This document shows positions 7,814-33,816 of a stretch of 64,000 nt of DNA, piece by piece. Numbering within the stretch: the stretch's first letter is position 1; each line of letters opens with the position of its first letter. The DNA is from Bdellovibrionales bacterium (lineage in GTDB: Bacteria; Bdellovibrionota; Bdellovibrionia; Bdellovibrionales; UBA1609). Made by a program: the position numbers and the translations under genes. The stretch is from contig OZ241325.1 of the NCBI GenBank assembly GCA_965200025.1, positions 1,306,743 to 1,370,742 of the forward strand. Reading direction: 5' to 3'. Under the pieces are notes generated by a model. That model had not been told where the DNA came from. It searched no databases and was given only the letters and a program-made list of their open reading frames with translations.

Positions 7814-7840
7814 CGGCCTGAAAAAAACAAAGCCCCCCTG

Positions 7841-8847: not shown

Positions 8848-8902
8848 TTTTTAAATCTTATGGGGGAAAGCCCTCACACACACCCTTCAGGGGGATAAAA
8901 AA

Positions 8903-9178: not shown

Positions 9179-9179
9179 A

Positions 9180-10472: not shown

Positions 10473-10517
10473 GGGAGGTACTTGACAAAACCGGAAAAAA
10501 GTTTTTATAAGGGACCC

Positions 10518-10880: not shown

Positions 10881-10910
10881 ATCTTTTCAAAACAAAAAAG
10901 TAAGAGCCCT

Positions 10911-11312: not shown

Positions 11313-11383
11313 CTGCAAAAAAAGAGGCAGGCAGGAAGAAAAAAACAAAGCCTTTGCACTTAAAAAGTTTGGGTTGATTAATA

Positions 11384-15201: not shown

Positions 15202-16380
15202 ATGAAATGCGGTATTATTGGCCTTCCCAATGTGGGCAAAAGCACTTTGTTTAATTGCTTAACCTCTCTTAAAATTCCTGCAGAAAATTACCCTTTCTGT
15301 ACTATTGATCCCAACATAGGAAGGGTGGCGGTGCCTGATCAAAGGCTTTCCACCTTAAAAGAGATTTTTAAACCGGAAAAAACCACCCCCACCAGCATGG
15401 AATTTGTGGATATTGCGGGTCTCATCCCTCAGGCCCACAAAGGTGAGGGCCTGGGAAACCGGTTTTTAAGTCATATACGCGAAACCGATGCTTTAATCCA
15501 TGTGGTCCGCTGTTTTGAAGACGAAAAAGTCTCTCACACTCAGGGAGGGGAGTTAAACCCCCTTCAGGATGTGGAGCTGATTGAAACAGAGCTTTTAATG
15601 GCAGACTTAAGTACCCTGGAGCAGCGACAGCAAAAACTGCAAAAGCTTTTAAAAGGCTTTCAAAAAAAAGAACTCCTAAAAGAGCATCAACTGGTTCAAA
15701 AACTCTTAACCCACATTTCAGAAAAAAACAAACCAGCCGGGAAGTACCCTTTAACTTCCGAAGAGGATGTGTATTTTAAACCCTTAAACCTTTTGACTGC
15801 CAAACCGGTTTTGTATGTCTGTAATACAGATGAAACCTCCCTTCTGGCAGACTTAAAAAACTCAAACTCCCCCTCAGAACATGCCTCATCTGTTACAGAC
15901 GGAAAAAAAACTTTATTAAGTAAGAATACTCCCTCCCCCAGCCTCTTGCAAAAAATGAAAACCAAATACCCGGCCTCCTCTTTAATGCCTGTTTGTGCCA
16001 ATATGGAGGCAGAGGCTTTGGCTTTTGAATCCGAGGGGGAGAGGCAAAGTTTTCTCTCAAGTATGGGGTTAAAGGAATCAGGACTTTCCCGGTTGATTAA
16101 AAAATCCTATAGCCTTTTAAATCTTATCACTTTTTTTACAGCAGGACCCAAAGAGTGCCGGGCATGGACTGTTAAACAGGGTAGCAAGGCCCCTCAGGCG
16201 GGAGGCTCTATCCACAGTGATTTTGAAAAAGGTTTTATCAAAGCAGAAGTTTATGCTTTTGAAGATTTAAAAAGACTAAAATCAGAGGCAGAAGTTCGAA
16301 AAGCAGGACTCTTAAGACAGGAAGGTAAAAATTATGTGATTCAAAATGGAGATATTGTGTTCTTCAAATTTAATGTCTAA
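15202..16380 (+). CDS. ychF: ribosome-binding ATPase YchF (Obg-like)
   Basis: G1 motif GLPNVGKSTLFN, EFVDIAGL and a TGS-like end (IHSDFEKGFIKAEV...DGDIVFFKFNV). It also has an S/P/K-rich internal insertion relative to typical YchF. Confidence 0.95.
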   Translation: MKCGIIGLPNVGKSTLFNCLTSLKIPAENYPFCTIDPNIGRVAVPDQRLSTLKEIFKPEKTTPTSMEFVDIAGLIPQAHKGEGLGNRFLSHIRETDALIHVVRCFEDEKVSHTQGGELNPLQDVELIETELLMADLSTLEQRQQKLQKLLKGFQKKELLKEHQLVQKLLTHISEKNKPAGKYPLTSEEDVYFKPLNLLTAKPVLYVCNTDETSLLADLKNSNSPSEHASSVTDGKKTLLSKNTPSPSLLQKMKTKYPASSLMPVCANMEAEALAFESEGERQSFLSSMGLKESGLSRLIKKSYSLLNLITFFTAGPKECRAWTVKQGSKAPQAGGSIHSDFEKGFIKAEVYAFEDLKRLKSEAEVRKAGLLRQEGKNYVIQNGDIVFFKFNV

Positions 16381-17243
16381 ATTCTGCCGTTCAAAGCGGG
16401 ATTATATTGCTCTGGAGGAAACACCACAGAGTTTCCCTCTCTTTTTGCCTCATCGGTTTTTTTCCTTAAAAATACCAAAAAAGCTTTATGCTTGTCTTCT
16501 TTCAATGTAAATTCGGTTTCAGGGGCAACAACCAGTAAGCTTTCCATTCCCCCCTTTTGCTGATTTTTAGGGAAGGAATGTAGCAGCTGTTCATATTTTT
16601 GCCCCAGCTTTTTCATCAAAGAATCAAGAGAATAAGACAAAGGGTCATTTTCTTTGTGAGTATTGATTTTATGAACACTATATGAAATCTCATGCCAAAG
16701 ATTTAGTTGATCAGCACTCAGAGGCTTGTCTGTCTTGTTTAAAAGATGCTCCATTTCATGAACTCTACTGATAAACTGAGGAATTTTAGAGTGAACATTT
16801 GTACCTTTCACCTTTAAAATACGCTTACCTGCCAATACATTTATGTCCTCCATACTAAATCCAGCTCCCATCAATTCTATAAAACTCGAAAAATGGAATC
16901 CATACAGGTTCCGTCTACTAAACAAGTTTCTCTTACTTATATACTCCCGGTTCGGTTCACCAAAGGTTGTGTTGATGAAAAAAGGGCTGTGGAGTTCACT
17001 TCTTATGAAAATGATTTCATCAACGGTGAGCTTCCTGTTTAAGGCATTTTCCATCTTTGTTTTTAACATTTTTAATTTCACTTTGAATACTCTGTCGTCC
17101 AATTTCGGTCTCAGTTCTTTCACTCCGTATTCTATCAGATCGTCTATTTTTTCTATAAATAAGTCCTTACAGGAGGCCACACTCACAGTATAGCCTTCCA
17201 CACAAAAAACCATTACTACAGCAAAAACAAAACCCTTAAACAT
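16377..17243 (-). CDS. secreted hypothetical protein, paralogue B of the three-member family
   Basis: Signal peptide, the motif VASCKDLFI, KLTVDEIIFIRS and AGFSMEDINVLAGK. It sits behind the same promoter/palindrome architecture as A and C. Confidence 0.6.
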   Translation of the reverse strand: MFKGFVFAVVMVFCVEGYTVSVASCKDLFIEKIDDLIEYGVKELRPKLDDRVFKVKLKMLKTKMENALNRKLTVDEIIFIRSELHSPFFINTTFGEPNREYISKRNLFSRRNLYGFHFSSFIELMGAGFSMEDINVLAGKRILKVKGTNVHSKIPQFISRVHEMEHLLNKTDKPLSADQLNLWHEISYSVHKINTHKENDPLSYSLDSLMKKLGQKYEQLLHSFPKNQQKGGMESLLVVAPETEFTLKEDKHKAFLVFLRKKTDEAKREGNSVVFPPEQYNPALNGRI

Positions 17244-17302
17244 CTTTCAAACTCCCTTAAAAAAGTTGCTTTCATCACATTCATGTGGCTTTACCAAAAT
17301 CC

Positions 17303-17330
17303 ACTTTAACCCCTCCCATTTTTCTGTCAA
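17303..17330 (-). promoter_or_regulatory. sigma70-like promoter TTGACA-N16-TAAAGT (interrupted G tract)
   Basis: The minus strand reads cttgacagaaaaatgggaggggttaaagt. This matches the 29-nt A/C promoter with a few substitutions, and the G run is broken (GGGAGGGG). Confidence 0.4.
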
Positions 17331-17364
17331 GTTTTTTATGTTTTTTTGTTTCATCTTATTTTTA

Positions 17365-17379
17365 GTGTAAATTTTACAC
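17365..17379. promoter_or_regulatory. 15-nt perfect palindrome GTGTAAATTTTACAC, candidate operator upstream of paralogue B
   Basis: The 7-bp arms GTGTAAA/TTTACAC lie 34 nt upstream of the -35 box on the minus strand. Confidence 0.35.
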
Positions 17380-17425
17380 CGCCCTTAAGATGTAGCAGGA
17401 AGATTTTACAATTTTTATATTTGTT

Positions 17426-18172
17426 TTAAGAAAACACTGATTTTAAAAAACGCAGCATTTCCTGCCAGGAGGATTTTTCCACCTCTGCATTGTAAGCTGT
17501 GTCGATGTTAAACTTTTTACCATTCTCTGTTGCCTGAGGGTTGGTAAAACCATGGGCTGCACCCGGATAGCTGATAAACTTACAGTCTGCCTGTTTGACC
17601 TCCATTTCTTTTTTAAAATTTTGCACATGCTCTGCGGGAATCATGCTGTCGTTTTCCCCATGGCAGACCAGTATTTTGGTTTTTATCGAAGAGGGAAAAG
17701 AATTTTCCTCAGCCAGAAGCCTTAAACTTCCATGGAAGCTGACCACCCCCTTAAGCTGCTCTGTCCCCATACGGGCCAAATGAATGGACAAAGCCCCCCC
17801 CAGGCAGTGACCTATGGAAGCCCTTTGATGGGGCAGAACCTGTGCCTGAGAACTTAACACTTTAAGGCAATTCAGCAGTTTTTTTGTGGTACTCTCCATG
17901 TTGGCAAGAGTGTTCTTCATCATCGCTGTAGCCTCAAGGGCTGTGGCAGCCAGTTTGCCCTCCCCGTACAGGTCAACGGCCAAAGTGGTGTAACCTTCTT
18001 TGGCCAACCTCAAGGCACGGTTTTTCATGTTTTCTGTCAGGCCCCAAAACTCAGGCAAAACCATAACAGCAGGAAAAGAATCTGAACTTCCCGCAGAAGG
18101 GGAAAAAAGCACTGATCGGGACACAGAATCTTCAAAAGGTATATTTAATGCCCGGGTTTGAATTTGGCTCAT
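17426..18172 (-). CDS. dienelactone hydrolase family protein
   Basis: Alpha/beta-hydrolase layout with the nucleophile motif IGHCLGG and a C-terminal AAHGF. 248 aa. Confidence 0.8.
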   Translation of the reverse strand: MSQIQTRALNIPFEDSVSRSVLFSPSAGSSDSFPAVMVLPEFWGLTENMKNRALRLAKEGYTTLAVDLYGEGKLAATALEATAMMKNTLANMESTTKKLLNCLKVLSSQAQVLPHQRASIGHCLGGALSIHLARMGTEQLKGVVSFHGSLRLLAEENSFPSSIKTKILVCHGENDSMIPAEHVQNFKKEMEVKQADCKFISYPGAAHGFTNPQATENGKKFNIDTAYNAEVEKSSWQEMLRFLKSVFS

Positions 18173-18924: not shown

Positions 18925-19271
18925 GAGTTTTTTGTTAAAGAATCAGACAGGGAAACAGTGGCAGCTTTTTCATCTTCATAAATATTCTGATCAGGTACAC
19001 TTTTCTGACTGGCAAGCATACGGCGAAATTCAGACCCCACACAACAAAACCTGAGCTGGGAACACTCTCCCAAATCCTTAATTGTTTTCAGAAAAGGACT
19101 TAAACCATCTGAACCCACAAAATTCAGACCTTTAAGATTAAAAACGATATTTTTTTTAACCAGCTTGGTCATACAGGTGTTGTGAAAAGGCTCTGTGCAG
19201 GCCAAATCCACCTCTCCCTTTAAATGCACAATAATCACACCTTCTTTGGTTTCTTTTACAAAAGCTTCCAT
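18921..19271 (-). CDS. STAS-domain protein (anti-sigma-factor antagonist-like)
   Basis: About 116 aa with LNFVGSDGL (the SpoIIAA-type DSSGL position). It overlaps the rnhB start by 4 nt. Confidence 0.65.
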   Translation of the reverse strand: MEAFVKETKEGVIIVHLKGEVDLACTEPFHNTCMTKLVKKNIVFNLKGLNFVGSDGLSPFLKTIKDLGECSQLRFCCVGSEFRRMLASQKSVPDQNIYEDEKAATVSLSDSLTKNS

Positions 19272-19351
19272 AGTTTTTTTAGTCTGACCTGTAAAAGGGG
19301 AAATGACAAATGCTTTTATATGTCATCAGGTCTTTAGGCTTACCTGTATCC

Positions 19352-19366
19352 ATGTATTTTTTACAT
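19352..19366. promoter_or_regulatory. 15-nt palindrome ATGTATTTTTTACAT, candidate operator upstream of paralogue C
   Basis: Arms ATGTA/TACAT lie 38 nt upstream of the -35 box. An extra TTTACAT half-site lies at about 19384. Confidence 0.35.
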
Positions 19367-19403
19367 TCTTAATTGAAACCTTTACATTCTTTAAATTCCC
19401 GCC

Positions 19404-19431
19404 TTGACAAAAAAATGGGGGGGGGTAAAAA
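19404..19431 (+). promoter_or_regulatory. sigma70-like promoter TTGACA-N16-TAAAAA with a G9 tract in the spacer
   Basis: It is identical over 29 nt to 11611-11639. GGAG lies 9 nt before ATG 19450. The leader would be very short, so the real start codon or +1 site is uncertain. Confidence 0.45.
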
Positions 19432-19449
19432 ACTTTTGGAGTTTGAAAA

Positions 19450-20274
19450 ATGTTAAAAATATTGCTCTTAATGATTTCGGTGTTTTTCTCTTTACAGGGC
19501 CATACTCTGCCCTGTGATGAGTATTTTAAAACCTCAGGGGAGGATATTCTGATCCAGCAGATAGAAAACACCCTGAAGCGGGAACTCACACCCTACCAGG
19601 TGGGATTTATACAAAAACACATGAAAAAATCAAAAACCCGAAAAAAAAATAATTTTAGCAATTCCATAGCTATAATGAATTTTGTGGAAAGCGGCTTCCT
19701 TATACATGAGATAAGCACACTGCTGCGTAATGGTATTATAAAGGAATCCAGAAAAGCTTTATACAATGATATATATATTATTGAAGCCATGCAATCCGTT
19801 TTAAATCAGGAAGAGCCTCTCAGTCTGACTCAAATTCAGCTTTTACTGAAAGCCAAAGTGTTTATGGATATGATAAAATGGAAAAAACCTGTTGAAATGT
19901 TTGAGATAGAATTTTTTATATCTTACATAGAGCAAATAGCAAACCTTTCACAGGAGGAAAATAAAAACCTGAACTTCAGTGAGTTGGAACATTTCATAAG
20001 AACAGTTTTTAAAGTCTATATAAAAAAAACCTTCCACATCCTTCAGTATGTTGAAAAAAGAGACCGGATAAAGCAACACCTCACAACCTTTAACGGCCTG
20101 GCATTGGCCGGAGCACAAAGAAGGCTTATAAGAAAAAACACATTTGACATTCAACCCCTGTTAAAAAAAGGTTTTACTGTGGAAGATATAAAAACCCTGC
20201 TTAAGGAGGATATGTTTTCTTCTGACCAGAACTTAAAACAACTGGTGCAGGATGCTTTGGATTCTTTAAAATGA
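19450..20274 (+). CDS. secreted hypothetical protein, paralogue C of the three-member family
   Basis: Signal peptide, the motif TLPCDEYFK, ELTPYQVGFIQK, SGFLIHEISTLLRNG and KGFTVEDIKTLLKE. Confidence 0.6.
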   Translation: MLKILLLMISVFFSLQGHTLPCDEYFKTSGEDILIQQIENTLKRELTPYQVGFIQKHMKKSKTRKKNNFSNSIAIMNFVESGFLIHEISTLLRNGIIKESRKALYNDIYIIEAMQSVLNQEEPLSLTQIQLLLKAKVFMDMIKWKKPVEMFEIEFFISYIEQIANLSQEENKNLNFSELEHFIRTVFKVYIKKTFHILQYVEKRDRIKQHLTTFNGLALAGAQRRLIRKNTFDIQPLLKKGFTVEDIKTLLKEDMFSSDQNLKQLVQDALDSLK

Positions 20275-20907
20275 GGTACAACTTTCAGAGATTAAAGATC
20301 GTTCATAAGCTTCAGAACTAACAGCCTGTGTTCCCAAAAGTGTTTTAAACACCCTGCCATTCCACTGCTTTAAAGTTTGCTCTCCATAAAGTTCTTCCGC
20401 AGAGTTTTTAAGCTTGCAAAACAAAGCCACATCCGCTGTGGAAAACCAGTTGAATTTACTGTGCACCAGGTGAGCAGGAACTTCCTGCCAGGCCAAACGA
20501 ACCATTAAATCATACACCTGAAAAAGGGTTTTCCTGACCCTGCTGACAGCCGCCAGGTTTTGCATGCAATCCTGGGATATCACATTAAAATCGTTTATCA
20601 GTTTATGTACCTGGGCAAACAAACCATAACAGCTCCCCGGAGAGGAGTGTGTTTTACACTCTGCCATGAGAACATCCATGAGAGGTTTTTTTCTGGTCTT
20701 AACGTCAGGATTTTTATAAAGCCGGCCTTTTTGCCGGGCCTTAAAATTTTCTATTTGCGTGCGGCATATTGTGTGCGGAGGATCTTGTAAAACCACAAGC
20801 ACAATCACAGCACCTAAAATGAGTGTTACAAAAATCTTCCTGGGCAAAGAGGCAAACCACTTAATCACAACAAAAACTCTAAGTACCCACCACCTGCCCA
20901 CAAGCAC
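20266..20907 (-). CDS. hypothetical membrane-anchored protein
   Basis: An ORF with an N-terminal TM helix (IFVTLILGAVIVLVVL) and several Cys. No recognisable family. Confidence 0.4.
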   Translation of the reverse strand: MLVGRWWVLRVFVVIKWFASLPRKIFVTLILGAVIVLVVLQDPPHTICRTQIENFKARQKGRLYKNPDVKTRKKPLMDVLMAECKTHSSPGSCYGLFAQVHKLINDFNVISQDCMQNLAAVSRVRKTLFQVYDLMVRLAWQEVPAHLVHSKFNWFSTADVALFCKLKNSAEELYGEQTLKQWNGRVFKTLLGTQAVSSEAYERSLISESCTSF

Positions 20908-21487: not shown

Positions 21488-22597
21488 TTAGAAGTCAAAG
21501 CTCACATTCGCCTGAACCTGCCAATAAGGAGCAGAGTTTGCAACATCAAAGGCCCCGGCAGAAACTTTGGCCCTAAAACCACCAGCAAAGGTTTTCTTCA
21601 CAAAGAGGCTTACCTCCAACACATCTTCTGTGCTGAGCATATCCTCCGAGTTAGGCACCTTTCCGCCATTACCCCAAAGACCCCAACTTCCTATGGACAT
21701 GAAGTACAAAGCGGTAAGCCCCATCTTTAAATGCTCCATGGGGGCGTAAGATACACCGGCTTTTCCGTATACAGTGCCTCCACCAAGAGCTGCCACATCC
21801 AACCACCCCGCACCATGGTGACGGTTGTGGTAGAAAGGGTCATAAGTGTCGTTTTCGTAGTGTGCACCTATATAGAAACGAACATCAACAGGAGTGCTGT
21901 AGTAGACTTTACCTTCCACAGCATAATTGACATCATCCGCCTGAAGCTTCTCCACATGGGCCACACCACTGAATTTGTAACCCACATCAGAGACTTCACC
22001 TCCCAGGTCCATTCCCACACGGATTTGGTCTTTGACACCTTCCGCATTTGCCATGGCATAGATTCCATAAAGAGTGGCGGTTTTAAGTGCCTCCAGAGCA
22101 TGAATGTCCAGAGCCAGACCCACTGTCTCTTTATAGTTCGCCTGCTCCACACCACCTTTCCACACTTCAGGAAGGTAAGCCCCCCAGACATCCACAGACA
22201 TACTGTCTGTGTTGTAAGTCAGAAAAGCCCCATCCATGGCATAAGGGTATTTTTCATACTTGTTAATGCTTATGGAGGAACCATAGCCCAGTTCGTAAGG
22301 GCTTCTTCCCAGACGAATCATAAGCTCATCGGATATTTTCCAATCCCCGTAACCATAGACACGGATACTCTCCATTTGGCTTTTTCCCCAGTCCAGGTTG
22401 GTAACCATCCAAAAATAGCTTTCAAACATTTCGTTGGGGCTGAAAGCTCCCTTGAGCTTAAACCTTTGAACAAAAACATCCTCTATATCCTGGTTATAAT
22501 AGACACCTCTGGCACGGTGTTGACCACCTAACTCCAGATCCACAGCCCACGCCACAGGCATGGCCATGTATAAAAGTATAAGAAACAGTTTTTTCAT
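21488..22597 (-). CDS. outer-membrane beta-barrel (porin-like) protein
   Basis: Signal peptide MKKLFLILLYMAMPVAWA, alternating aromatic/Gly-rich beta-strand pattern, and a terminal ...NVSFDF ending in Phe. Confidence 0.6.
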   Translation of the reverse strand: MKKLFLILLYMAMPVAWAVDLELGGQHRARGVYYNQDIEDVFVQRFKLKGAFSPNEMFESYFWMVTNLDWGKSQMESIRVYGYGDWKISDELMIRLGRSPYELGYGSSISINKYEKYPYAMDGAFLTYNTDSMSVDVWGAYLPEVWKGGVEQANYKETVGLALDIHALEALKTATLYGIYAMANAEGVKDQIRVGMDLGGEVSDVGYKFSGVAHVEKLQADDVNYAVEGKVYYSTPVDVRFYIGAHYENDTYDPFYHNRHHGAGWLDVAALGGGTVYGKAGVSYAPMEHLKMGLTALYFMSIGSWGLWGNGGKVPNSEDMLSTEDVLEVSLFVKKTFAGGFRAKVSAGAFDVANSAPYWQVQANVSFDF

Positions 22598-22802
22598 AAT
22601 ATAACTCCTTTATTTTTAAATTAGTTTCCTGATTTCAGTTCGCATTATGACCCGGCCAAGACCTGCCTGCCATAAATACCCCCCTAACTTACTCAGGCTT
22701 TTAGGGCTGAGTCAACACCAGAAATACTGTTCAAAACCCCTTTTTTTTTGAGTTTTGGCACTTTTTTTCACTTTTTTTTCAAAATTTCCCATTTTTTTCA
22801 GG

Positions 22803-22808
22803 TATAAT
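22803..22808 (+). promoter_or_regulatory. candidate -10 box (TATAAT) for tRNA-Pro
   Basis: A perfect TATAAT lies 78 nt upstream of the tRNA and is preceded by phased T-tracts. No good -35 box is present. Confidence 0.25.
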
Positions 22809-22886
22809 GTCCTGATGCGTCATAAAAAGTGTATCTTTTGATAGCCAGGCCATTTTGGGTTTTTAATGGGAGGAGGTCCCATTTTT

Positions 22887-22963
22887 CGGAGAGTGGCGCA
22901 GCCCGGTAGCGCATCTGCTTTGGGAGCAGAGGGTCGCAGGTTCAAATCCTGTCTCTCCGACCA
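22887..22963 (+). tRNA. tRNA-Pro (anticodon TGG)
   Basis: Hand fold: acceptor CGGAGAG/CTCTCCG, anticodon arm TCTGC-TTTGGGA-GCAGA, T arm GCAGG-TTCAAAT-CCTGT, and an encoded CCA. Confidence 0.9.
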
Positions 22964-23457
22964 TTTTATTACACAAGCCCATTTTTTTGCACCCCTTACC
23001 CCCCAAGTGAAGTGAAAACAAGAGGAATCGGACCTGAATTTTGACTTTATTCAATTAAGAAGATAATTAAATGAGGATTTAAACTTGGAATCAAGCCAGT
23101 TTCACCACAGTTCTTGAAGTACAAGATACTGCAGGTTAAAATAGGTTTAAGTAAACAAATAATTCAAGGTCAATACCCGTCTTCAAATCTAATGTATGAT
23201 GATTTATGGAAAATAGCTAATGACAACACTCCATTTCAAGATATATTGCATGATGTCAAAATCTTGGAACATGGATTTTCCTGAAAATTATACACTTGAT
23301 TTTATCAAAATAACTTGTCATTATATATCCAGTTAAAGGTTATAGGCCTTTAGTACAGACTTCCACTAACAAAAGTCTTAATTTATAAAGAAACTTATAA
23401 AAGCGTAAAGCTTTAAAAACATTTCAGTTTTTATGCTTTTAAATTAGATTAAAATCA

Positions 23458-25914
23458 ATGAAGTTTAAAGATTTCGCAACTGGAAAACTTGTTAAACTTT
23501 CTCCAGAGGAGAAAGTAAGACAAGAATATGAAAAAATTTTAGTAAATGATTATAGTTATAAAAAATCAGAACTGGATATTGAAGTTTCTATTCCAAGAGG
23601 AACAGGGTATTTCCCAGATTCTGCTGACATTGTCGTGTTTAATTCATCAATTGAAAAAGATCCAGCTGCTAATATATTAGGAATTGTAGAGACTAAACGT
23701 CCTGAAAAAAAAGATGGGTTAGCTCAACTTAAATCATACATGACAGCAACTTCTGCTGTTTGGGGAGTATGGACAAATGGCAATGATATTGCTTATCTTT
23801 GCAAACCTCCCGGAACAAACTCTATTTCAGAAAATTATCTAAATAATATCCCTGCAAGAAATCAATCTCTTCAAGACGTAGGCAGAATAAAAAAACAAGA
23901 TTTAAAACCTTTTGGAAGAGAAGAGCTTAAAACAGCTTTTCGCAGGATTCTTCTCACCCTTTATACAAATACAAATATCAGTCGTAGGGAAAAATTAGGT
24001 GGAGAAATGATAAAGTTGATTTTCTCAAAACTTGAAGACGAAAAAACATACTTAAATCGTGTTCCTGATTTTCGCTCAGAAGCAGGAGAAAAACCAGAAA
24101 CAGTAAAAAAACGAATTGATAAACTTTTTGACAGGGTAAAAAAAGAACTAAAAAATGATGGTGTTTTTCATTTTCATGAAAAAATTACTCTGGAAGCAAG
24201 ATCAGTTGCCTGGGTAGTGGGACAGTTAGAACGTGGAAGTTTATTAAAGACTGATACAGATGTGGTTGGAGATGCTTTTGAAATTTTTGCAGAATCTCCT
24301 TTAAAAGGGGAAAAAGGTGAATTTTTTACACCTCGTGGGGTTATTAAACTTGCAGTAAAGATGACTAATCCAAAACCTGAAGAGTCTATTTGTGATCCTG
24401 CTTGTGGATCAGGTGGATTTCTGATTTATTCCATGAAGCATATATGGAATCTAATGGAACATGATCCTAAATGGAAAGGATCACCTAAATTAAATGAACA
24501 TAAGCAAAGAATAGCCTCACAATCCATATTCGGAATAGATAAAGAGTCTGATTTGGTGAAAATTGCAAAAGCTTATATGGCTATTTCAGGAGATGGAAGA
24601 AGTAATATGGTTTATGAAAATACTTTACATGAAATAAGTAAGTTTTCACCTCTTGCTAAAGAAAAGTTTACAGAAGACAATAAATTCAGAAAATTTGATG
24701 TGATTTTAACTAACCCACCTTTTGGAACTAAAACCAAGGTTGTAAAATCTGATTCCAAAAATTTTCAACTTGGATATCAATGGACAGAAACAATAAAAGG
24801 GAAGTTTAACAAAACCAACAAAGTATGTGAAAGAGAACCACATATATTATTTATTGAACGCTGCCTTGATATGCTTAAAAAAAACGGACGCCTTGCAATC
24901 GTTCTTCCAGAAACTGTGTTTCACGCCCCAAAAGCAGGTTACATCAGGAATTTCATAAAAAATCAAACTAGTATAGAAGCTGTAATTGATTTGCCACATA
25001 ATACCTTTCGACCTCATTGTAACGCAAAAACATGTCTCTTTATTTTACAAAAAGGAAAAAAACAAAATAATAAAGTGATTATGGCTGCTCCCAAAGAAAT
25101 GGGACACAACCATCAAGGAAAGGTTATTTTTAGAAGAGGCACTGAAGAAATATGGGATGATCTAAAAGTGGTAACAAAAGAGTTAGATAATCCTAACCTA
25201 AAAAATAATCAATTCACTTTTTTGGTACCGTGGTCTCAAATCAAAGAGGCTGGAAATCTAGTACCTATTTATTATCAAAATATTTTCAAACCACCTAAAA
25301 TGTTGGAAGGAAGACTTGGCATTAAATTGAGTGATCTTTGTAATCAAAGGGTTTTAGATGCATGGGATGGTCATGGTTCTCCTTCCTCCATATCAAAAGG
25401 ACAAGGAAAAATTCCTTATATCCGTGTGAGTGACATTGTTAATTGGGAATTATACAGAAATCCAGTTACAGGAGTTCCAAAGGAGGTTTATGAAAAAATG
25501 ATTCAAAATAAGAAGAAACCTAAACCAAAAGACATTCTTTTTGTCAGAAGAGGGAGTTATCGTATAGGAACAGTTGCCATGGTATCTCCTCAGGATACAG
25601 AAGTGCTTCTAACAAGAGAGTTACTTACTTTTAGAGTTTTGAATGCAAAAAATCCCTATGGGATTAACCCTTTTTATCTTCTTGGTTTATTATCTTCAGA
25701 ATTTGTACAAAATCAAATACCTTCAAAAGTTTTTATTGATACAACTTTACCAAATATCGGGGATAGATGGAAAGACATTATTCTTCCTGTCCACAAAAAT
25801 AAAAAAGAAATTGAGAATTATACAAATAGAGTTAAGTCTATTATCGATAATAAATGGAAAGCACAAAAAGAAATTCAAAAAATGATAAATGATATAGAAA
25901 ACATTGTAACATAA
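23458..25914 (+). CDS. single-polypeptide restriction-modification enzyme (type IIG-like): PD-(D/E)xK nuclease, gamma-class N6-adenine methyltransferase and an HsdS-like specificity domain
   Basis: The N-terminus matches the HsdR-N-type nuclease domain (EEKVRQEY...SADIVVF...GIVETK; ExK at 23686-23697). The AdoMet motif ICDPACGSGGFLI starts at 24391. The catalytic NPPFG lies at 24712-24726. The C-terminal 300 aa resemble a type I S-subunit TRD (IPYIRVSDI...FVRRGSYRIGTVAMV...FYLLGLLSS). Confidence 0.8.
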   Translation: MKFKDFATGKLVKLSPEEKVRQEYEKILVNDYSYKKSELDIEVSIPRGTGYFPDSADIVVFNSSIEKDPAANILGIVETKRPEKKDGLAQLKSYMTATSAVWGVWTNGNDIAYLCKPPGTNSISENYLNNIPARNQSLQDVGRIKKQDLKPFGREELKTAFRRILLTLYTNTNISRREKLGGEMIKLIFSKLEDEKTYLNRVPDFRSEAGEKPETVKKRIDKLFDRVKKELKNDGVFHFHEKITLEARSVAWVVGQLERGSLLKTDTDVVGDAFEIFAESPLKGEKGEFFTPRGVIKLAVKMTNPKPEESICDPACGSGGFLIYSMKHIWNLMEHDPKWKGSPKLNEHKQRIASQSIFGIDKESDLVKIAKAYMAISGDGRSNMVYENTLHEISKFSPLAKEKFTEDNKFRKFDVILTNPPFGTKTKVVKSDSKNFQLGYQWTETIKGKFNKTNKVCEREPHILFIERCLDMLKKNGRLAIVLPETVFHAPKAGYIRNFIKNQTSIEAVIDLPHNTFRPHCNAKTCLFILQKGKKQNNKVIMAAPKEMGHNHQGKVIFRRGTEEIWDDLKVVTKELDNPNLKNNQFTFLVPWSQIKEAGNLVPIYYQNIFKPPKMLEGRLGIKLSDLCNQRVLDAWDGHGSPSSISKGQGKIPYIRVSDIVNWELYRNPVTGVPKEVYEKMIQNKKKPKPKDILFVRRGSYRIGTVAMVSPQDTEVLLTRELLTFRVLNAKNPYGINPFYLLGLLSSEFVQNQIPSKVFIDTTLPNIGDRWKDIILPVHKNKKEIENYTNRVKSIIDNKWKAQKEIQKMINDIENIVT

Positions 25915-26053
25915 ATGGAAAGTTTAATATATAGTTCTCTAAATTTTTACAGTGGCATTTCTTTTTAAGAGTCAAATCTTTTAAACAAACTGTAACAGAA
26001 GGGCATAAACTTTCTTTCCAGGAGGATTTTTTTAAAAAATAAGGAATTAAATA

Positions 26054-27847
26054 ATGAGAATAATTAAAATTATTATAAATAACTTTAGAGGAGTTAAAAA
26101 AAGTGAAATTTATTTTCCAAATCATGGAGTTCTTGTTGGTGATAGCAATGTAGGAAAATCAACAATTTTTGAAGCCATTGATCTGGTTTTGGGTCCAGAG
26201 AGAATGAGAAAAAAACCAGTTATTGATGAACATGATTTTTTTGCTGGTGATTATTTAAGTTTAGAAAAGAAGTTAATCAAAATTAATATTGAAGTAACAG
26301 CAGTGAATTTAAATAAAGAACAAGAAACCTATTTTAAAGATCATATTGAATGGTGGGATATTAACCAAGGTCAAATTTTAGACAGCCCACCCCCTGAAGC
26401 TACAGATGCAAACACTGTATTATCAGCCATCAGGTTTTCTTTCGAAGGAAAATATGATGAGGAAGAGGACGATTTTATCGGAAACACATATTTTCAACAT
26501 CCATTAAGAGATGATGGAGGAAAAAATCATCTTAGTACAAAAGATAAAAGAATGTGTGGATTTCTTTTTTTAAGAACTCTTAGAACAGGATCAAGAGCAT
26601 TAAGCTTAGAAAGAGGTTCATTGTTAGATATTATTTTAAATATTAAAGAAATTAAAATTAATATGTGGGAAGAGATTTTAGAAAAATTAAGATCTGTTTC
26701 TATTGCTGACAAATCTGAACTGGGAGTGACCAATGTATTATCTGATGTAAAAAAAGAACTAAGCTCATTGGTTACATCTGAATGGGGTACAAATCCTCAA
26801 ATAAAAACTTCTGATCTAACAAGAGAAGGGTTACGAAAAGTACTGAATGTGTTTATGGAAACGGGAGTCAAAAATATAAAAGGCCACAAACATATTGTGC
26901 CATTTAAAAAACAAGGAACAGGAACAATCAACATGCTGGTTCTTTCAATGCTATCCATAATTGCAAATTTAAAACAAAATGTAATTTTTGCAATGGAGGA
27001 ACCTGAAACAGCAATACCCCCATATACTCAAAAAAGAATCATCAATCATATTAGAAAAAATTCAACTCAAGCACTTTTTACTTCTCATAGTCCCTATGTA
27101 TTGGAAGAATTTGATCCTTCAGAGATTATTGTTCTCACTAATAGATTAGGTTTTATGGAATCAAAAAAAGTTACATTCCCAGCACATGTTAAAAGAAAAA
27201 ATTATAAACAGGAATTTAGAAAAAAATATTGCGAAGCGTTGCTGGCAAAAAAAATTTTAATAGTTGAAGGAAAAACAGAATATGATGCAATTCCGGTCGT
27301 TGCCCGTCGATTGCATGAAATCAACTCTCAAAAATTCTCCAGTTTGGAGGCTCTTGGAATAAGCATCATTAATGCTGAAACAGATTCTCAAATTGCATAT
27401 ATTGGGAAACATTTAAAAAACTTGGGAAAAATAACTTTAGCGATATATGACAAACAAGATGACAATCAGAATCTTCCAATAAAAAAAAATATAGATCACC
27501 CATTTGAATCTCCTGAAAAAGGATTTGAAAGCCTTATTATTAATAATGTTCCCTATCAAAAATTAAAGCAGTTTTTTATTGATATTTTTTCAGAAGGAAG
27601 CTGGCCCAGCCACTTATCCCACATAACTCCTAACAACTCTAGTAATGAAGCTGACATTAAAAAAGCTCTGAGTAAATACTTTCAGTGGTCAAAAGGTTTT
27701 GAAACTATAGCTAATTTATTGGAAACATGTAGTGAAAATGAAATTCCTGAATTTATAAAAGATACGCTTCTCTCAATAAAACATAAAGTGCAAAAAAAAT
27801 CTTTATCAGACCATCGAAGCTCTATAGAAAGTAATAATGAAAATTAA
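26054..27847 (+). CDS. gajA: OLD-family ATP-dependent nuclease (ABC-type ATPase + TOPRIM), GajA-like
   Basis: Walker A GDSNVGKST (26138-26164), Walker B-like VIFAMEEPE, then SHSPYV. The C-terminal TOPRIM-like region is ILIVEGKTEYDAIP...INAETDS...AIYDKQDD. The gene is adjacent to and overlaps a UvrD-like gene. Confidence 0.8.
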   Translation: MRIIKIIINNFRGVKKSEIYFPNHGVLVGDSNVGKSTIFEAIDLVLGPERMRKKPVIDEHDFFAGDYLSLEKKLIKINIEVTAVNLNKEQETYFKDHIEWWDINQGQILDSPPPEATDANTVLSAIRFSFEGKYDEEEDDFIGNTYFQHPLRDDGGKNHLSTKDKRMCGFLFLRTLRTGSRALSLERGSLLDIILNIKEIKINMWEEILEKLRSVSIADKSELGVTNVLSDVKKELSSLVTSEWGTNPQIKTSDLTREGLRKVLNVFMETGVKNIKGHKHIVPFKKQGTGTINMLVLSMLSIIANLKQNVIFAMEEPETAIPPYTQKRIINHIRKNSTQALFTSHSPYVLEEFDPSEIIVLTNRLGFMESKKVTFPAHVKRKNYKQEFRKKYCEALLAKKILIVEGKTEYDAIPVVARRLHEINSQKFSSLEALGISIINAETDSQIAYIGKHLKNLGKITLAIYDKQDDNQNLPIKKNIDHPFESPEKGFESLIINNVPYQKLKQFFIDIFSEGSWPSHLSHITPNNSSNEADIKKALSKYFQWSKGFETIANLLETCSENEIPEFIKDTLLSIKHKVQKKSLSDHRSSIESNNEN

Positions 27848-29555
27848 AATATGTGAAAAAAGAAACCGACTACTTTCATCTTCCAATAATTTAATTATTT
27901 TAGGTGGGCCTGGTTCGGGAAAAACCACAATTGCTTTGATAAAAGCAAAAGAAGAAGTAAAATCACTATCAAGTAGTCAAAAAATTTTATTTTTAAGTTT
28001 TGCTAGAGCTACAGTCGCTAAAGTTATCGAAAGCTCATCTCAATATATAGATAAAGTGTCCTTGAAATCCATTGAAATCAATACCTACCATGGATTCTTT
28101 TGGAATATTTTAAGAAGTCATGGTTATCTAATTAACAACAACTATCCTTTCAAAATTTTGAATGCAGCTGACGAGGCTGTGAAGATGGCAAATGTAGATC
28201 CAAAAGACAAGAGTATTACTCGTAAAAAAATATTTGAACAAGAAGGTATTGTAGCATTTAATTTGTTTTCTTCCCTGGTCAATAGGTTATTTTCAGGATC
28301 AAAAAAATTAAAATATATAATCTCAAGATCATATCCCATTATCATTGTTGATGAGTTCCAGGATACCAATATTGAGGAATGGGAAACAGTGAAGCTTTTA
28401 AGTGAAACTTCCAGAATTATTGCTCTCGCTGACCCTAATCAAAGAATCTATGATTTTAGAGGAGCTGATCCTGCTCGAATAGGTCAATTTATTGAGCAAT
28501 TAAAACCAGAAACATTCAATTTTGAAAATGAGAATAACAGGAGTTCAACCAAAGATATAACCACATTTGGAAATGACCTTCTTACAGGAGAAAACCAAAG
28601 AAAACAATATCGTGATGTCAAAATCTTTTTTTACAAATATTACGGAAATAACCGTCATGAAATCTATCATCCACTTAAAACGAAAGTAATGGAAGGAATT
28701 AAGAGATTAAATACCGGTATAGACTGGTCAATTGCAATATTACTCCCTACAAAATCTCAAATGTTACAAGCATCAAATTATTTTTCTTCTTCAAAAGACA
28801 AGTTACCTATTATTGAACATGATGTTGCCATTGACTCTGAAGGACCTGAACTTGCTGGAAATTTATTTGCTAAATTATTGGAAAATTTTACCTCAATAGA
28901 AGAAATAAAAAAGCAGATTATTATTCATCTCATAGACCACTTGAAAGGCAGAAAAGGAGATAACCCCACACAACAGGATTTAAAACTTTCAAGAGCATTA
29001 CAAAATTTGTTAAGTAAAAATAAAATTACTGGAACAAGACGGTTAAAATTAATAAAAGAAATAGAATTAATTGCCAATAAAAGATTTAATCTGAGATTCA
29101 CAGGTAATCCTTTGGATGATTGGCGAAGTAATGTAGATTTATTTAATAACTATAAAAATGAAGATGCTTTAAAAAATATCAAAGAAGATGCAAAGTATAT
29201 AAGATTATTACATATAGGTTCTCATCTCAGAGAATCTTTAAATCGCTCCTGGAAAGATTATGGTTGTTACAATAATGCCAGTAAAAATTTTCGATCAGTA
29301 ATTCAGAAAGAAAATTTATCCACAAATATTAAAAAATCTTCCAAAATTAATATAATGACTATACATAAATCCAAAGGAAAACAATTTAATGAAGTTTTTC
29401 TTTTTGAAGGACTTTATACAGGTCGATTTGTACGACAACCAAAAGAACAAAAAAGTGTTGACCAATCCAGATTAATCTTAAGAGTCGGTGCCACAAGAGC
29501 AATGGATCGGGTCACCATATTATCTCCTGATAGTAAAAAGTGTGAAATACTATAA
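27837..29555 (+). CDS. gajB: UvrD/PcrA/Rep-family SF1 helicase, GajB-like
   Basis: Motif I GGPGSGKTT (27903-27929), motif II IIIVDEFQDTN (28350-28364), TIHKSKGKQF and VGATRAMDRV. It overlaps the upstream gene by 11 nt. Confidence 0.8.
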   Translation: MKIKICEKRNRLLSSSNNLIILGGPGSGKTTIALIKAKEEVKSLSSSQKILFLSFARATVAKVIESSSQYIDKVSLKSIEINTYHGFFWNILRSHGYLINNNYPFKILNAADEAVKMANVDPKDKSITRKKIFEQEGIVAFNLFSSLVNRLFSGSKKLKYIISRSYPIIIVDEFQDTNIEEWETVKLLSETSRIIALADPNQRIYDFRGADPARIGQFIEQLKPETFNFENENNRSSTKDITTFGNDLLTGENQRKQYRDVKIFFYKYYGNNRHEIYHPLKTKVMEGIKRLNTGIDWSIAILLPTKSQMLQASNYFSSSKDKLPIIEHDVAIDSEGPELAGNLFAKLLENFTSIEEIKKQIIIHLIDHLKGRKGDNPTQQDLKLSRALQNLLSKNKITGTRRLKLIKEIELIANKRFNLRFTGNPLDDWRSNVDLFNNYKNEDALKNIKEDAKYIRLLHIGSHLRESLNRSWKDYGCYNNASKNFRSVIQKENLSTNIKKSSKINIMTIHKSKGKQFNEVFLFEGLYTGRFVRQPKEQKSVDQSRLILRVGATRAMDRVTILSPDSKKCEIL

Positions 29556-29652
29556 CCGACGTTTAATCTTTTTTAATTTTTCCACTGGTCTTTGGTTTTG
29601 AAGATATAGTCTTGCCATACCACCATATAGTCAACTTGAACCAACAAAACTT

Positions 29653-32600
29653 TCAGGCGGTGGCGTTTTCTGTACCGGGATGGGTGGCTTCATCCTCAAC
29701 AGAGGAAGCCACTGTACCAGGGAGTTCCACCTGCTCATCCTCTTCGGCCTCATTAAAAACCAGCTTCCAGTTTCGGTAAGCGTTTAAGCCGGTACCAGCG
29801 GGAATCAGCCGGCCCATCACAATGTTTTCTTTCAGGCCGGAAAGCTCATCCGCTTTGGACTGAACAGCCGCCTCCGTAAGTACCTTTGTAGTCTCCTGAA
29901 AAGAGGCTGCAGAAATCCAGCTGTCTGTACTTAAGGACATGCGGGTAATACCAATCAAAAGCACCTTGTATTGTACAGGCTTTCCACCTGTTTTTTGCAA
30001 ATGCCTGTTCACATTTATCACCTCTGCCCTGTCTATTTGATCCCCCACCAAATAGCGGCTGTCCCCAGGTTCCAACACCTCCACCTTCTTCAGCATTTGA
30101 GAGACAATCACCTCAATATGCTTGTCATTAATCACCACACCCTGAAGCCTGTAAACCGCCTGTATCTCATCAATCAGGTAAGAAGCTAAAGCATAAGTCC
30201 CGGATATGTGTAAAATATCATGGGGATCACTCAAACCATCCATAATGGTCTCCCCCATTTTAATATACTCCCCCTCTCTGACAGCAATATGCTTCCCCTT
30301 GGGAACCAGATACTCCCTTTGTTCCCCCTCTTTCGAAGTCACAATCACACTCTGCTTGCCTTTGGAACCTTTACCAAAACTTACAGAACCTTCAATTTCA
30401 CAAATAATGGCTGCATCTTTTGGTTTTCGGGCTTCAAAAAGTTCTGCCACCCGGGGAAGCCCCCCTGTGATGTCTTTCGTCTTGGTGGATTTTTTATGAA
30501 TCTTGGCTATCATATCCCCGGCACGAATCTGATCTCCGTGGGAAACCAAAACCTGTGCCCCCACAGGAATGGTGTAAGAAATGGGAGTCCCCCTGTCTGC
30601 AAATATCAAAGCCTTTCCCTTTCCGTCCACCAAAGCAATGCTGGGTTTTTGATCCGAAGATTTGCTCTTAATAATAATCTTGGTGGAAAAACCGGTCACC
30701 GCATCCACCTGCTCTGTCATGGAAACACCCTCCTCAATATCAATAAACTTCACAAAGCCGTTCTCATCAGCCACAATAATGTTGGAGTAAGGATCCCACT
30801 CAGCCAGCAAATCCCCTTTATTGACCTGATCTCCATCCTTTACACTCAGTACAGAACCATAAGGAACCTGCAGGCGATCCCGCTCCCGGCCCGTGCCATC
30901 TGTAATAACAATCTCCCCGCTCCGGTTAATCACCCGAAGTTTGCCATGCCGGTTGACCACAGAAGTCACATTCTCAAACTGCACCTTTCCACTGTAACGG
31001 GTGGTGTGCACAGACTGCTCAATGGAACGGGAGGCCGTACCCCCTGTGTGAAAAGTCTTCATCGTCAGCTGTGTCCCCGGTTCCCCAATGGACTGGGCGG
31101 CTATCACCCCCACAGGTTCGCCCAAATTGACTGTTTTTCCCCGGGCCAAATCCCTTCCATAACATTTGATGCAAATTCCCCTGTGAGCTTTACAGGTTAA
31201 AGACGATCGGATTTTCACCGACTCAATACTTAAGGACTTCAGTTCCTCCAGAACATACTCATCCAGCTCCTCACCGGCTTTGACAATCACTTCTTTGGTT
31301 TCCGTATGAATAATATCCTCAAAACTGGTGCGACCCAAAACCCTGTCACTTAAAGACTGCACCATACCACTGCCCTCTCCCGGGGCCCGCACAGTTACAA
31401 ACTCTTCTGTCTTGCAGTCCATTTCAGTAATCACCACATCCTGTGCCACATCCACCAGCTTACGGGTCAGGTACCCGGAGTTGGCTGTTTTTAAAGCTGT
31501 GTCTGCAAGTCCTTTTCTGGCCCCATGTGTGGAAATAAAATACTGAAGCACAGTCAAACCCTCCCGAAAGTTGGCGGTAATGGGAGTTTCAATAATCTCC
31601 TGTGAGGGTTTTGCCATAAGTCCCCTCATTCCCGCCAGCTGGCGAATTTGGGCGGCAGATCCCCTGGCCCCGGAATCCGCCATAATAAAAATGGAGTTAA
31701 AACTGTCGGATTCCACCTGCGTGCCGTCTTTCAGTGTAAAAGAATCTTTTTCCAGATTGTTCATCATTTCTTTTGCCACCTGGTCCCCACACTGAGTCCA
31801 TATATCCACCACTTTGTTATATCTTTCACTGTCGGTGATCAGACCCTCATCGTATTGGGTTCTGATCTCATCCACTTCCTTTCGGGCCTGAGACAAAAGT
31901 TTTTCTTTGGACTTGGGAATCACCAGGTCATCCAGACAGATGGAAATACCGGCCAGTGTGGAATACTTATACCCATAGTTTTTTAAACCATCCGCCAGAA
32001 GAACAGTCTTTTTTCCCCCACACAATCTGAAAGTTCTGTCAATGAGTTCTGCCAGGGCTTGCTTGTTCATGGTTTTGTTGTAACACTCCACCGGTACTTC
32101 CGGAGGAATAATATCACTCAACAAAGCACAACCCACGGAAGTGTCCATCAGTTTGTTTTTCATCCGACACTTGATAGCCGCCTGCAAATCCACATACCCG
32201 TTCTCATGGGCGTAAATCACATCCTGCACACTTCCGAAAACAGCCCCTGTCCCCTTTGCTCCAGGGCGAATTCTGGTCATCCAGTAAATCCCCAACACAA
32301 TATCCTGTGTGGGATTGATAATGGGTTTTCCGTTGGCAGGGCTTAAAATGTTGTTGGTGGACATAATCAGAACCCGGGATTCCACCTGAGCCTCCACCGA
32401 AAGAGGCACATGGACAGCCATCTGATCCCCATCAAAGTCCGCATTAAAAGCTGTACAAACCAAAGGGTGAAGCTGAATGGCCTTGCCTTCATGAAGAACC
32501 GGCTCAAAAGCCTGAATACCCAGGCGATGCAGAGTGGGGGCCCGGTTCAACAGCACAGGATGCTCTTTCACCACTTCAGACAAAATATCCCAAACCTCCA

Positions 32601-33816
32601 CACTTTCCTGATCCACAAGCTTCTTGGCCTGTTTGATGGTCACTGCCAGCTGACGCTCCTGAAGTTTGTTATAGACAAAAGGTTTAAAAAGCTCCAAAGC
32701 CATTTTTTTTGGCAAACCACACTGATGAAGCCGGAGTTTTGGACCCACCACAATCACTGATCGGCCTGAGTAATCCACCCTCTTACCCAAAAGGTTTTGA
32801 CGAAACCGACCCTGTTTTCCCTTAAGCATATCGCTTAAAGATCTGAGAGGTCTTTTGTTGGGGGACATAAAGGGCTTTCCCCCCCGGCCATTGTCCAGAA
32901 GGGAATCCACGGCCTCCTGAAGCATTCTTTTCTCATTCCGGATAATCACCTCAGGGGCGGAAAGCTCCTGAAGTTTACGCAAACGATTGTTACGGTTAAT
33001 CACCCGCCGGTAAAGATCATTTAAATCAGAGGCTGCAAACCGGCCCCCATCCAGAGGAACCAAAGGTCTTAAATCCGGTGGAATCACAGGCAAAATCTCA
33101 AGCATCATCCATTCCGGACGATTCCCGGAGTGAAGAAAAGTTTCCACCACACGGAGTTGCCTGGTGAGTTTTTTGGTGAGAGTAACCAGCTTGGTTTCTC
33201 TGAGTTGCTTTCTGATTTTCCGGGATAAAAAATCCAGATCCAAATCTTTAAGCATGGCGTGAATGGCCTCCCCCCCCACAGAAACCACAAAGTGCGGACC
33301 GTATTTGGCACCCGCCTCCTGATACTCCATTTCTGAAAGCAGCTGGCCTTTTTTTAAATCCGTGTCTTTGGGATCCAAAACCACATAAGACTCACAATAA
33401 AGCACTTTTTCCACATCCTTAAAACTCATATCCAGCAAAATGGCAATGCGGCTGGGAAGGGAACGCAACATCCACACATGAGCCACAGGAGAGGCCAGCT
33501 GAATGTGTCCGGTACGCTCCCTTCTGACTTTCGATTTGGTAACCTCCACCCCACACTTTTCACATATTGTACTTCTGTACTTCATACCCTTGTACTTGCC
33601 ACACAAACATTCATAATCCCTTGAGGGACCAAAAATTTTGGCACAAAAAAGACCTTCCCTTTCCGGCTTAAAAGTCCGGTAGTTAATGGTCTCAGGTTTT
33701 CTCACCTCCCCGTAGCTCCACTTGCGTATCATCTCCGGGGAAGCCAAAGACACCCGCACTCTGTTAAAAGCCAAAGGGTCTTTTGGTTTTTCAAAAAAAT
33801 TTAAAAGATCTCTCAT
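29653..33816 (-). CDS. rpoC: DNA-directed RNA polymerase subunit beta'
   Basis: Unambiguous: the NADFDGD catalytic motif, zinc-binding CxC..C..C near the N-terminus, and 1387 aa. Confidence 0.98.

Follow-up and report, generated by a model that had tools for sequence, protein, structure and literature searches.

A mosaic islet between tRNA-Pro and rpoC in a Bdellovibrionales bacterium: a Type IIG-like restriction-modification gene beside a Gabija pair, probably two known defence systems

Between a tRNA-Pro gene and rpoC on contig OZ241325.1 of a Bdellovibrionales bacterium lies a block of 6.7 kb (22964-29652) that is rich in adenine and thymine (AT-rich). It carries three co-oriented genes, one for a predicted restriction-modification (RM) enzyme and two for proteins that match GajA and GajB of the Gabija system. 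Positions are those of the whole 64,000-nucleotide (nt) stretch that was analyzed, hereafter called the window, and the block is called the island. The locus raises the question of whether the three genes form one new composite defence system, or whether known systems came to stand side by side, and how they arrived there. We conclude that the island is very probably a horizontally acquired mosaic defence islet, in which two independent and self-sufficient cassettes adjoin each other. As such it would be ordinary, since both systems are well known.

The features of the locus are listed below. Loci fetched for comparison are designated by L numbers, and lengths of proteins are given in amino acids (aa).

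22887-22963, + strand: tRNA-Pro gene (anticodon TGG), found by ARAGORN and by the Rfam tRNA model (66 bits), with a guanine-plus-cytosine (GC) content of 0.62; left boundary of the island
22964-23347, no strand: non-coding spacer of 384 nt, unique, matching no other locus fetched; blastn homology to L081 begins only at 23348
23348-23457, + strand: about 110 nt directly preceding the RM gene, inside an 86% DNA match to L081, where the genomic context is wholly different
23458-25914, + strand: predicted RM enzyme gene, 818 aa, assigned by Pfam, motifs, an AlphaFold2 model and Foldseek
25916-26037, no strand: junction spacer of 122 nt between the cassettes, matching neither set of relatives (L081, L085)
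26054-27847, + strand: gajA, 597 aa, assigned by PADLOC (GajA), Pfam and motifs
27837-29555, + strand: gajB, 572 aa, assigned by PADLOC (GajB), Pfam and motifs
29556-29652, no strand: spacer of 97 nt between the convergent stop codons of gajB and rpoC; right edge of the island
29653-33816, - strand: rpoC, from the open reading frame (ORF) and from homologues at most 87% identical, named beta' subunit, of Bdellovibrionales; right boundary, backbone

Composition and gene content of the island

Sliding GC and tetranucleotide profiles were calculated along the window. The GC content fell from 0.43 (22500-22999) to 0.29 (23000-23499), stayed at 0.27-0.34 until 29499, and was 0.46 from 29500. The island as a whole has a GC content of 0.31, against 0.44 ± 0.03 elsewhere in the window. 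When 1-kb segments were compared, the values were 0.30-0.33 inside the island (n=6) and 0.439 ± 0.030, with a minimum of 0.356, outside it (n=56). In tetranucleotide usage, the distance from the remainder of the window was 0.45-0.52 inside and 0.15-0.25 outside, so that the island lies at two to three times the background. The coding sequences deviate in the same manner. The GC content at third codon positions was 0.20-0.21 in the three island genes and 0.38-0.52 in seven of the nine neighbours tested, and lysine, asparagine and isoleucine together account for 26-29% of the three island proteins, as against 13-19% of RpoB, RpoC and neighbours.

These results agree with the original prediction, made from the letters of the DNA alone, which had described an AT-rich shift at the 3' end of tRNA-Pro, a return at the rpoC stop codon, and proteins rich in the three residues above. 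The ORFs also confirmed its three co-oriented genes of 818, 597 and 572 aa on the + strand, with rpoC on the - strand. One detail was only partly upheld. The drop had been placed directly after the CCA end, which is encoded in this tRNA gene. The stretch is foreign from the tRNA to rpoC, but the GC content is still 0.42 over the first 77 nt 3' of tRNA-Pro, and the steep fall begins near 23041. The 494-nt leader of the RM gene is non-coding, as had been stated; ORFs in it do not exceed 56 aa, and Rfam matched nothing besides the tRNA. Structured RNAs and terminators were sought in the leader and spacers, where neither an Rfam match nor a fold z-score beyond chance was obtained. In the 97-nt gajB-rpoC spacer, no significant hairpin was detected on either strand.

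The possibility that the AT-rich block is an assembly chimera of a metagenome-assembled genome was also considered. The composition shifts abruptly, and the sequence is known from one metagenome-derived 1.9-Mb contig only. However, both edges coincide with natural gene boundaries, namely the tRNA 3' end and the rpoC stop codon, with intact genes on each side, and related long contigs show similar low-GC cassettes within a higher-GC backbone. A chimera is extremely unlikely.

Two smaller patches of low GC content (0.34-0.36) were observed at 16377-17499 and 19000-20300 of the window. They are its only other sites where the composition dips towards the island values, and both overlap ORFs without Pfam matches (288 aa on the - strand and 274 aa on the + strand).

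In the first gene, Pfam detected HSDR_N_2 (residues 16-132) and N6_Mtase (266-597). The layout can be read as a PD-(D/E)xK nuclease (about 16-132), a helical linker (140-265), a gamma-class N6-adenine methyltransferase (266-597), and an HsdS-like target recognition domain (TRD) with a C-terminal helix (598-818). The motifs read in the protein were D57/E78/K80 of the nuclease, motif I DPACGSGGF (313-321) and motif IV NPPF (419-422) of the methyltransferase. When 52 and 120 homologues were aligned, D57, E78 and K80 were invariant in every one of them, and DPACGSGGF (with C316 and G319 near-invariant) and N419-P-P421 were invariant or near-invariant. An AlphaFold2 model built with the 52 homologues had a predicted local distance difference test score of 85.6 and a predicted template modelling score of 0.75. 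The best Foldseek matches of this model in the PDB were the RM subunit of BsaXI (Type IIB) and, over the whole length, BpuSI (Type IIG), followed by Type I HsdM subunits and CamA. BsaXI was the best match by sequence as well. With a profile of the C-terminal part, the top three PDB matches were the Type I HsdS proteins 1yf2, 5ybb_D and 3okg, which were weak (E = 0.045-0.5); the aligned region includes the stretch G-x-IP-[FY]-[IV]-[RK]-[IV]-x-DI, typical of HsdS. Because the Pfam domains, the conserved motifs, the model matches and the C-terminal HsdS profile matches point in one direction, the nuclease-methyltransferase-specificity reading is supported, and the gene is predicted to encode a single-chain Type IIG-like RM enzyme.

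As in Type IIG enzymes, the nuclease and the methyltransferase lie in one polypeptide with catalytic residues intact. The putative TRD, for which the support is modest, is in the same chain, and no separate S or M partner gene adjoins it. The homologues in L081, L082, L086 and L087 are likewise solitary. BpuSI (PDB 3S1S) has the same domain order, with an N-terminal PD-(D/E)xK nuclease, a helical linker, a gamma-class N6-adenine methyltransferase and a C-terminal TRD, and the Foldseek alignment covers the whole length, yet the sequence identity is 13%. The BsaXI RM subunit (8W0P), the top match by both sequence and fold, is 22-24% identical; BsaXI requires a separate S subunit, whereas the TRD appears to be fused in the window protein.

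Two other assignments were tried and rejected. The best NCBIfam match was MAD2 of MADS (NF047738), which has the same HSDR_N_2 plus N6_Mtase architecture and aligned with residues 4-562. This match scored 338.6 bits against a cut-off of 720, the C-terminal 250 residues were uncovered, and no other mad genes were present; GajA matched MAD3 only over an 80-residue stretch (44 bits against a cut-off of 420). A Type I RM system was rejected because the island contains no HsdR helicase or HsdS gene and the hsdM model TIGR00497 gave 62.5 bits against a cut-off of 242.75.

The presumed specificity domain (598-818) is conserved almost like the methyltransferase core. Across the 120 homologues, the mean identity to the window protein was 56% in the former and 60% in the latter, and GHGSP (638-642), PYxRxxDxVNWE (653-664) and RGSxRIGTVAM (698-708) contain invariant residues of the specificity domain. 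The homologues carry names from several phyla, for example Poribacteria and Chloroflexota. This suggests that the family would share one fixed recognition sequence, which is unusual for RM enzymes. The window gene is solitary like those of Type IIG enzymes, but differs in having a TRD so conserved across phyla. No phase-variable repeats of note were found in the RM gene.

Such conservation, out of keeping with fast-diversifying RM enzymes, would also fit an orphan or regulatory methyltransferase whose nuclease-like domain no longer cuts, in which case only Gabija would be defensive. CamA-type orphan methyltransferases are among the fold matches, and the NCBI-derived names of homologues are only 'N-6 DNA methylase'. 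On the other hand, the invariance of D57, E78 and K80 in all aligned homologues implies selection for catalysis. The gene is also patchy, low in GC and mobile, and often stands beside transposases as selfish RM genes do. An orphan role is unlikely.

For the second and third genes, PADLOC returned a GajA match (PDLC00086, 820 bits, residues 1-590 of 597) and a full-length GajB match (PDLC00104, 657 bits). Pfam assigned AAA_15 (1-349) and OLD-like_TOPRIM (396-466) to the former, and UvrD-helicase and UvrD_C to the latter. The motifs are intact: GajA has the Walker A sequence GDSNVGKST, a Walker-B-like MEEPE and the TOPRIM sequence IVEGKTE with its glutamate, and GajB has GGPGSGKT and DEFQD. The pair shows the features by which Gabija is recognized, namely an N-terminal ATPase of the ATP-binding cassette (ABC) type and a C-terminal TOPRIM nuclease of the OLD family in GajA, and a co-oriented gene for a UvrD-like superfamily 1 (SF1) helicase adjoining gajA downstream. 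According to the ORF coordinates, the last 11 nt of gajA are also the first 11 nt of gajB. The Gabija of Bacillus cereus VD045 has the same gajA-first two-gene operon with overlapping genes, an ABC-type ATPase plus TOPRIM protein and a UvrD-like SF1 helicase. GajB of the window has 572 aa, as compared with about 494 aa in the solved B. cereus chains. The nearest homologues of the window GajA (71-72% identity) belong to uncultured bacteria. The domain calls of the original prediction (a nuclease-methylase-specificity fusion, an OLD-type ATPase/TOPRIM protein and a UvrD-like helicase) are in agreement with Pfam, PADLOC, NCBIfam, the model and the profiles.

The enzymatic activities and the anti-phage function, which we infer, would be as follows. 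In the first cassette, by analogy with BpuSI and MmeI-type enzymes, the HsdS-like domain would read a short asymmetric site, the gamma-class methyltransferase would mark an adenine in host DNA, and the N-terminal PD-(D/E)xK nuclease would cut incoming DNA that lacks the mark. In the second, by analogy with B. cereus, GajA and GajB would assemble into a complex, which would nick or cleave DNA in the course of an infection.

Independence of the two cassettes

To what extent the RM gene and gajAB belong together can be read from their occurrence elsewhere. The comparison covered 86 other loci of the RM family, that is, 80 metagenome loci (homologues of 47-60% aa identity; 366 kb of flanking sequence) and six others. 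Neither gajA nor gajB was found in the flanks of any of the 86. The closest homologue (87% aa, L081) is solitary amid housekeeping genes. Copies at 81% (L168), 68% (L082) and 67% (L169) are likewise solitary, as are more remote ones (about 35-38% identity), one carried by an Aerococcus plasmid and another in a Helicobacter prophage record.

The match to L081 delimits the RM cassette to 23348-25915. Over this segment the DNA identity is 86%, from about 110 nt before the start codon through the stop codon. The GC content of the RM gene in L081 is 0.33, against 0.39-0.40 in the flanks. The upstream 110 nt presumably contain its own promoter and 5' untranslated region.

The converse was observed for gajAB. 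The two closest pairs (71-72% GajA identity; L084 and L085) are without the RM gene of the window. The pair in L084 neighbours rve transposases and other defence-like genes; that in L085 neighbours a Y1 transposase and Type I RM fragments, and forms an AT-rich pair inside a GC-richer host. DNA identity of 75-76% to these pairs is limited to 26038-29555, that is, from 16 nt before the gajA ATG through the gajB stop codon. Furthermore, at L170 a SIR2_2 gene and a 932-aa gene occupy the place of Gabija after the RM cassette.

Thus, because the RM gene occurs without gajAB, gajAB occurs without the RM gene, and homology breaks at 25915 and 26038, the island appears to be a mosaic of two independent cassettes and not a new three-gene machine. 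The original prediction had asked whether the RM enzyme and the OLD/UvrD pair act as one unit from one promoter, and these comparisons argue against it.

Some observations would nevertheless suit one interdependent system, in which a single promoter ahead of the RM gene serves all three genes. In such a system Gabija might, for instance, recognize self DNA by its methylation, or GajB might be triggered by the products of RM cleavage. The three genes share one orientation, the gap between the RM gene and gajA is 139 nt, no terminator-like hairpin was predicted in the junction spacer, and upstream of gajA the gajAB cassette carries hardly any sequence that belongs to it. GajB is reported to sense DNA termini (10.1101/2023.05.02.539174). 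Against this stand the absence of gajAB from all related RM loci, the other neighbours of the closest gajAB pairs, the homology break between the modules, and the pairing of the RM cassette with a SIR2-type module in L170. In addition, Gabija is described as a two-protein system, acting as a GajA-GajB complex and present in more than 15% of genomes (PMC10781630, PMC10822852). One interdependent system is very unlikely.

In a variant of this reading, the RM promoter would drive one transcript for both the RM enzyme and Gabija, and the two would act synergistically, with the ends of RM-cut phage DNA activating GajB and GajA, as a selected two-layer unit. We give this little credence as well. Co-transcription as such is possible, because no terminator was predicted between the RM gene and gajA and the gajAB cassette has little upstream sequence. 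A shared transcript would not by itself mean one system. Two cassettes that are each self-sufficient remain our preferred reading.

History of the locus and route of arrival

By its RpoC, the window belongs to an uncultured Bdellovibrionales-like lineage. The best relatives by RpoC identity reached 87%, 86% and 84%, and none above 87% was found in RpoC scans of genome contigs and the protein database with context look-ups. Among 12 rpoC-flank loci of relatives, no homologue of the three island genes was found within 10 kb of rpoC, and no tRNA-Pro gene was present at the rpoC flank. In the relatives where it could be read, the gene after rpoC was ETF-QO (L001, L011) or an unrelated 318-aa gene (L083). 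None of the left-flank genes of the window adjoins rpoC in relatives, and none of the relatives' downstream genes occurs in the window. As no synteny is shared on the tRNA side, the island therefore lies at a synteny breakpoint. Judging from these loci, the three genes are clearly not conserved at this position; together with the deviant composition, their absence bears out the foreign stretch of the original prediction. The three island proteins are singletons at 90% identity, each found on one 1.9-Mb contig. Near-identical DNA was not found on known plasmids or phages, where only distant gajA and methyltransferase fragments matched.

The island shares with tRNA-integrated islands a start at a tRNA 3' end and a deviant composition. 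An integrase gene and a direct repeat at the far edge (attR) were not found. A search for attachment (att), direct and inverted repeats round the island gave only chance-level AT-rich repeats, and the tRNA 3' end had no repeat even when up to 3 mismatches were allowed. The reported absence of an integrase, a transposase and a repeat of the tRNA 3' end was hence confirmed, and a flanking direct repeat was also absent.

A second contig, L168/L170, bears on the tRNA; its source sample also yielded L083, the nearest readable relative by RpoC. Here, too, a tRNA-Pro gene, with anticodon GGG, is followed on its 3' side by the RM cassette (81% aa), after a gap of 247 nt. This tRNA gene is not that of the window: it has its own compensatory stems and is flanked by tRNA-His and tmk. 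A second low-GC mosaic island starts here (L170, 9678-20200), with cassettes of GC 0.33-0.38 in a backbone of 0.50-0.55. Its cargo consists of the RM homologue, small ORFs, the SIR2_2 gene, the 932-aa gene, which has no recorded Pfam match, and an AAA_14/DUF4143 gene. No integrase and no attR were found in it. A tRNA occurs within about 1 kb in 8 of the 86 related RM loci, and the window is the ninth case.

Since the RM cassette lies 3' of tRNA-Pro in two genomes with different flanks and different partner cargo, these loci point to a tRNA-linked defence hotspot. In the E. coli pan-genome, defence hotspots at tRNA loci have been described, some of them without identifiable means of mobilisation (PMC10121019). 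How an island without a mobility gene came to its place was regarded in the original prediction as potentially novel; defence hotspots of this kind are already known. The likeness is a variable defence content at a tRNA locus, here an RM cassette with either Gabija or a SIR2-type pair. Unlike the E. coli hotspots, the present case consists of two occupied sites at two different tRNA-Pro genes in an uncultured lineage. As for the proposal that the tRNA was the landing site, the second tRNA-Pro lends it indirect support, while integrase and attR are missing.

A frame at 23081-23284 (+) also concerns the route. It begins with KLGIKPVSPQFLKY (23081-23122), which resembles box II of tyrosine recombinases (xLGIxxVSPHxLRH), and runs into the 56-aa ORF 23114-23284. 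The match was not significant: the KLGIKPVSPQFLKY frame scored 1.2 bits against the integrase hidden Markov model, was matched by 7 of 2000 shuffles, had no Pfam match, and was one of several frames searched. The frame may be what remains of the 3' end of a decayed integrase gene, or may have arisen by chance, and is taken as a hint only.

This hint enters into the explanation that the island is a decayed integrative element, which entered at the tRNA-Pro 3' end by means of a tyrosine recombinase and later lost its integrase and attR. The start of the island at the tRNA 3' end, the RM cassette 3' of a second tRNA-Pro, the peptide KLGIKPVSPQFLKY and the tyrosine recombinases present within 0.2-6.5 kb in 6 of the 80 metagenome loci are in line with it. 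It is opposed by the insignificance of the KLGIKPVSPQFLKY match and by the lack of an att repeat in either the window or L170. Moreover, each of the two tRNA-Pro genes has retained compensatory acceptor and T stems of its own, and hence no common 3' half derived from an element is visible. We regard the decayed element as a tentative possibility, somewhat short of an even chance. It is a proposal about how the island arrived and does not conflict with two independent cassettes. The data agree both with a decayed integrative element and with recombination, and do not decide between the two. Most likely the cassettes would have arrived at a tRNA-Pro-associated defence hotspot, which either lost its mobility genes or was filled by recombination.

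Besides the short junction and the possible co-transcription described above, several points weigh against a horizontally acquired islet of two self-sufficient cassettes at this locus. The comparison of the tRNA-Pro-rpoC interval with related genomes, which the original prediction had proposed, showed that the genes are absent at rpoC in the 12 relatives, but no true empty site was found. Because the nearest relatives (84-87% RpoC identity) lack synteny on the tRNA side, we infer the insertion at exactly this spot. No similarity to integrases or transposases above chance was found in the spacers, which leaves the arrival without an explanation of that kind. In the RM enzyme, Pfam gave no match in the C-terminal 218 residues (601-818); fold similarity and weak profile matches are the basis for assigning the TRD, which is the least firmly assigned part. 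For Gabija, phmmer searches of the PDB matched the B. cereus GajA with 28 bits (E = 7e-6, partial) and GajB with E = 1e-9. As the similarity to the experimentally studied B. cereus VD045 proteins is weak, the pair would therefore be a distant Gabija subfamily, and its behaviour is extrapolated.

Two further observations concern tRNA genes of the window. T-rich tandem motifs (CACTTTTTTT and related sequences, 2-4 copies) are present at 22740-22800, about 90-150 nt upstream of tRNA-Pro; the CACTTTTTTT motifs lie in the gap between this gene and a divergent 369-aa gene. At 48958-49041 (-), beside tRNA-Thr and upstream of tRNA-Gly and tuf, ARAGORN reported a 'tRNA-???' with a two-base anticodon (gt). 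Probably the program mis-parsed a tRNA-Tyr whose variable arm is long.

The RM family at other loci and the meaning of the island

Transposase genes were observed beside RM homologues at other loci. A gene for a DDE transposase resembling the IS5 family is found directly upstream, on the same strand, of distant RM homologues (about 50% aa). Examples are L149 (6628-7869 followed by 7866-10487) and L117 (6961-7860 followed by 7827-10487), in both of which the transposase gene overlaps the start of the RM-fusion ORF; the arrangement also occurs in L104, L109, L119, L139 and L142. The NCBIfam model transpos_IS5_2 scored 131 bits against a cut-off of 140. In several loci the transposase and the RM gene have been kept together (72-79% DNA identity), and homologues of the transposase adjoin the RM gene in 16 of the 80 metagenome loci in several orientations. 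The RM gene could be the passenger of a transposon, or the two genes could form an RM unit linked to a transposase.

Transposase genes of the IS1595 family (NCBIfam, 206 bits against a cut-off of 75) lie 3-132 nt from the RM homologue in 9 of the 80 loci (L089, L113, L121, L131, L132, L144, L148, L162 and L163). With both kinds counted, a DDE transposase adjoins the RM gene in 25 of the 80. No trace of an IS5-like or IS1595 transposase was detected in the window.

In L169, from another Bdellovibrionales-like genome, the RM homologue is followed at a distance of 8 nt by an ORF of 591 aa without a recorded Pfam match (9591-11366, +). The N-terminal part of its product includes REFIQNSLDA, a sequence resembling the ExxxNxxDA N-box of GHKL ATPases. 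The ORF could be a partner gene of the RM enzyme or a separate defence gene.

The proposed novel three-gene combination is not supported. The systems are known, and the island provides a new instance of each. It adds a record of two common defence systems from an uncultured Bdellovibrionales-like lineage that has been little sampled, and beyond annotation this carries little weight. The adjacency and co-orientation of the RM and Gabija genes are no evidence for a new composite system. The locus is a clean example of a defence islet built from gene-sized cassettes with sharp homology boundaries, without mobility genes, beside tRNA-Pro. The RM-enzyme family may merit a study of its own, since it is highly conserved across phyla, its specificity domain is apparently fixed, and it is often tightly linked to transposases among the 80 metagenome loci.

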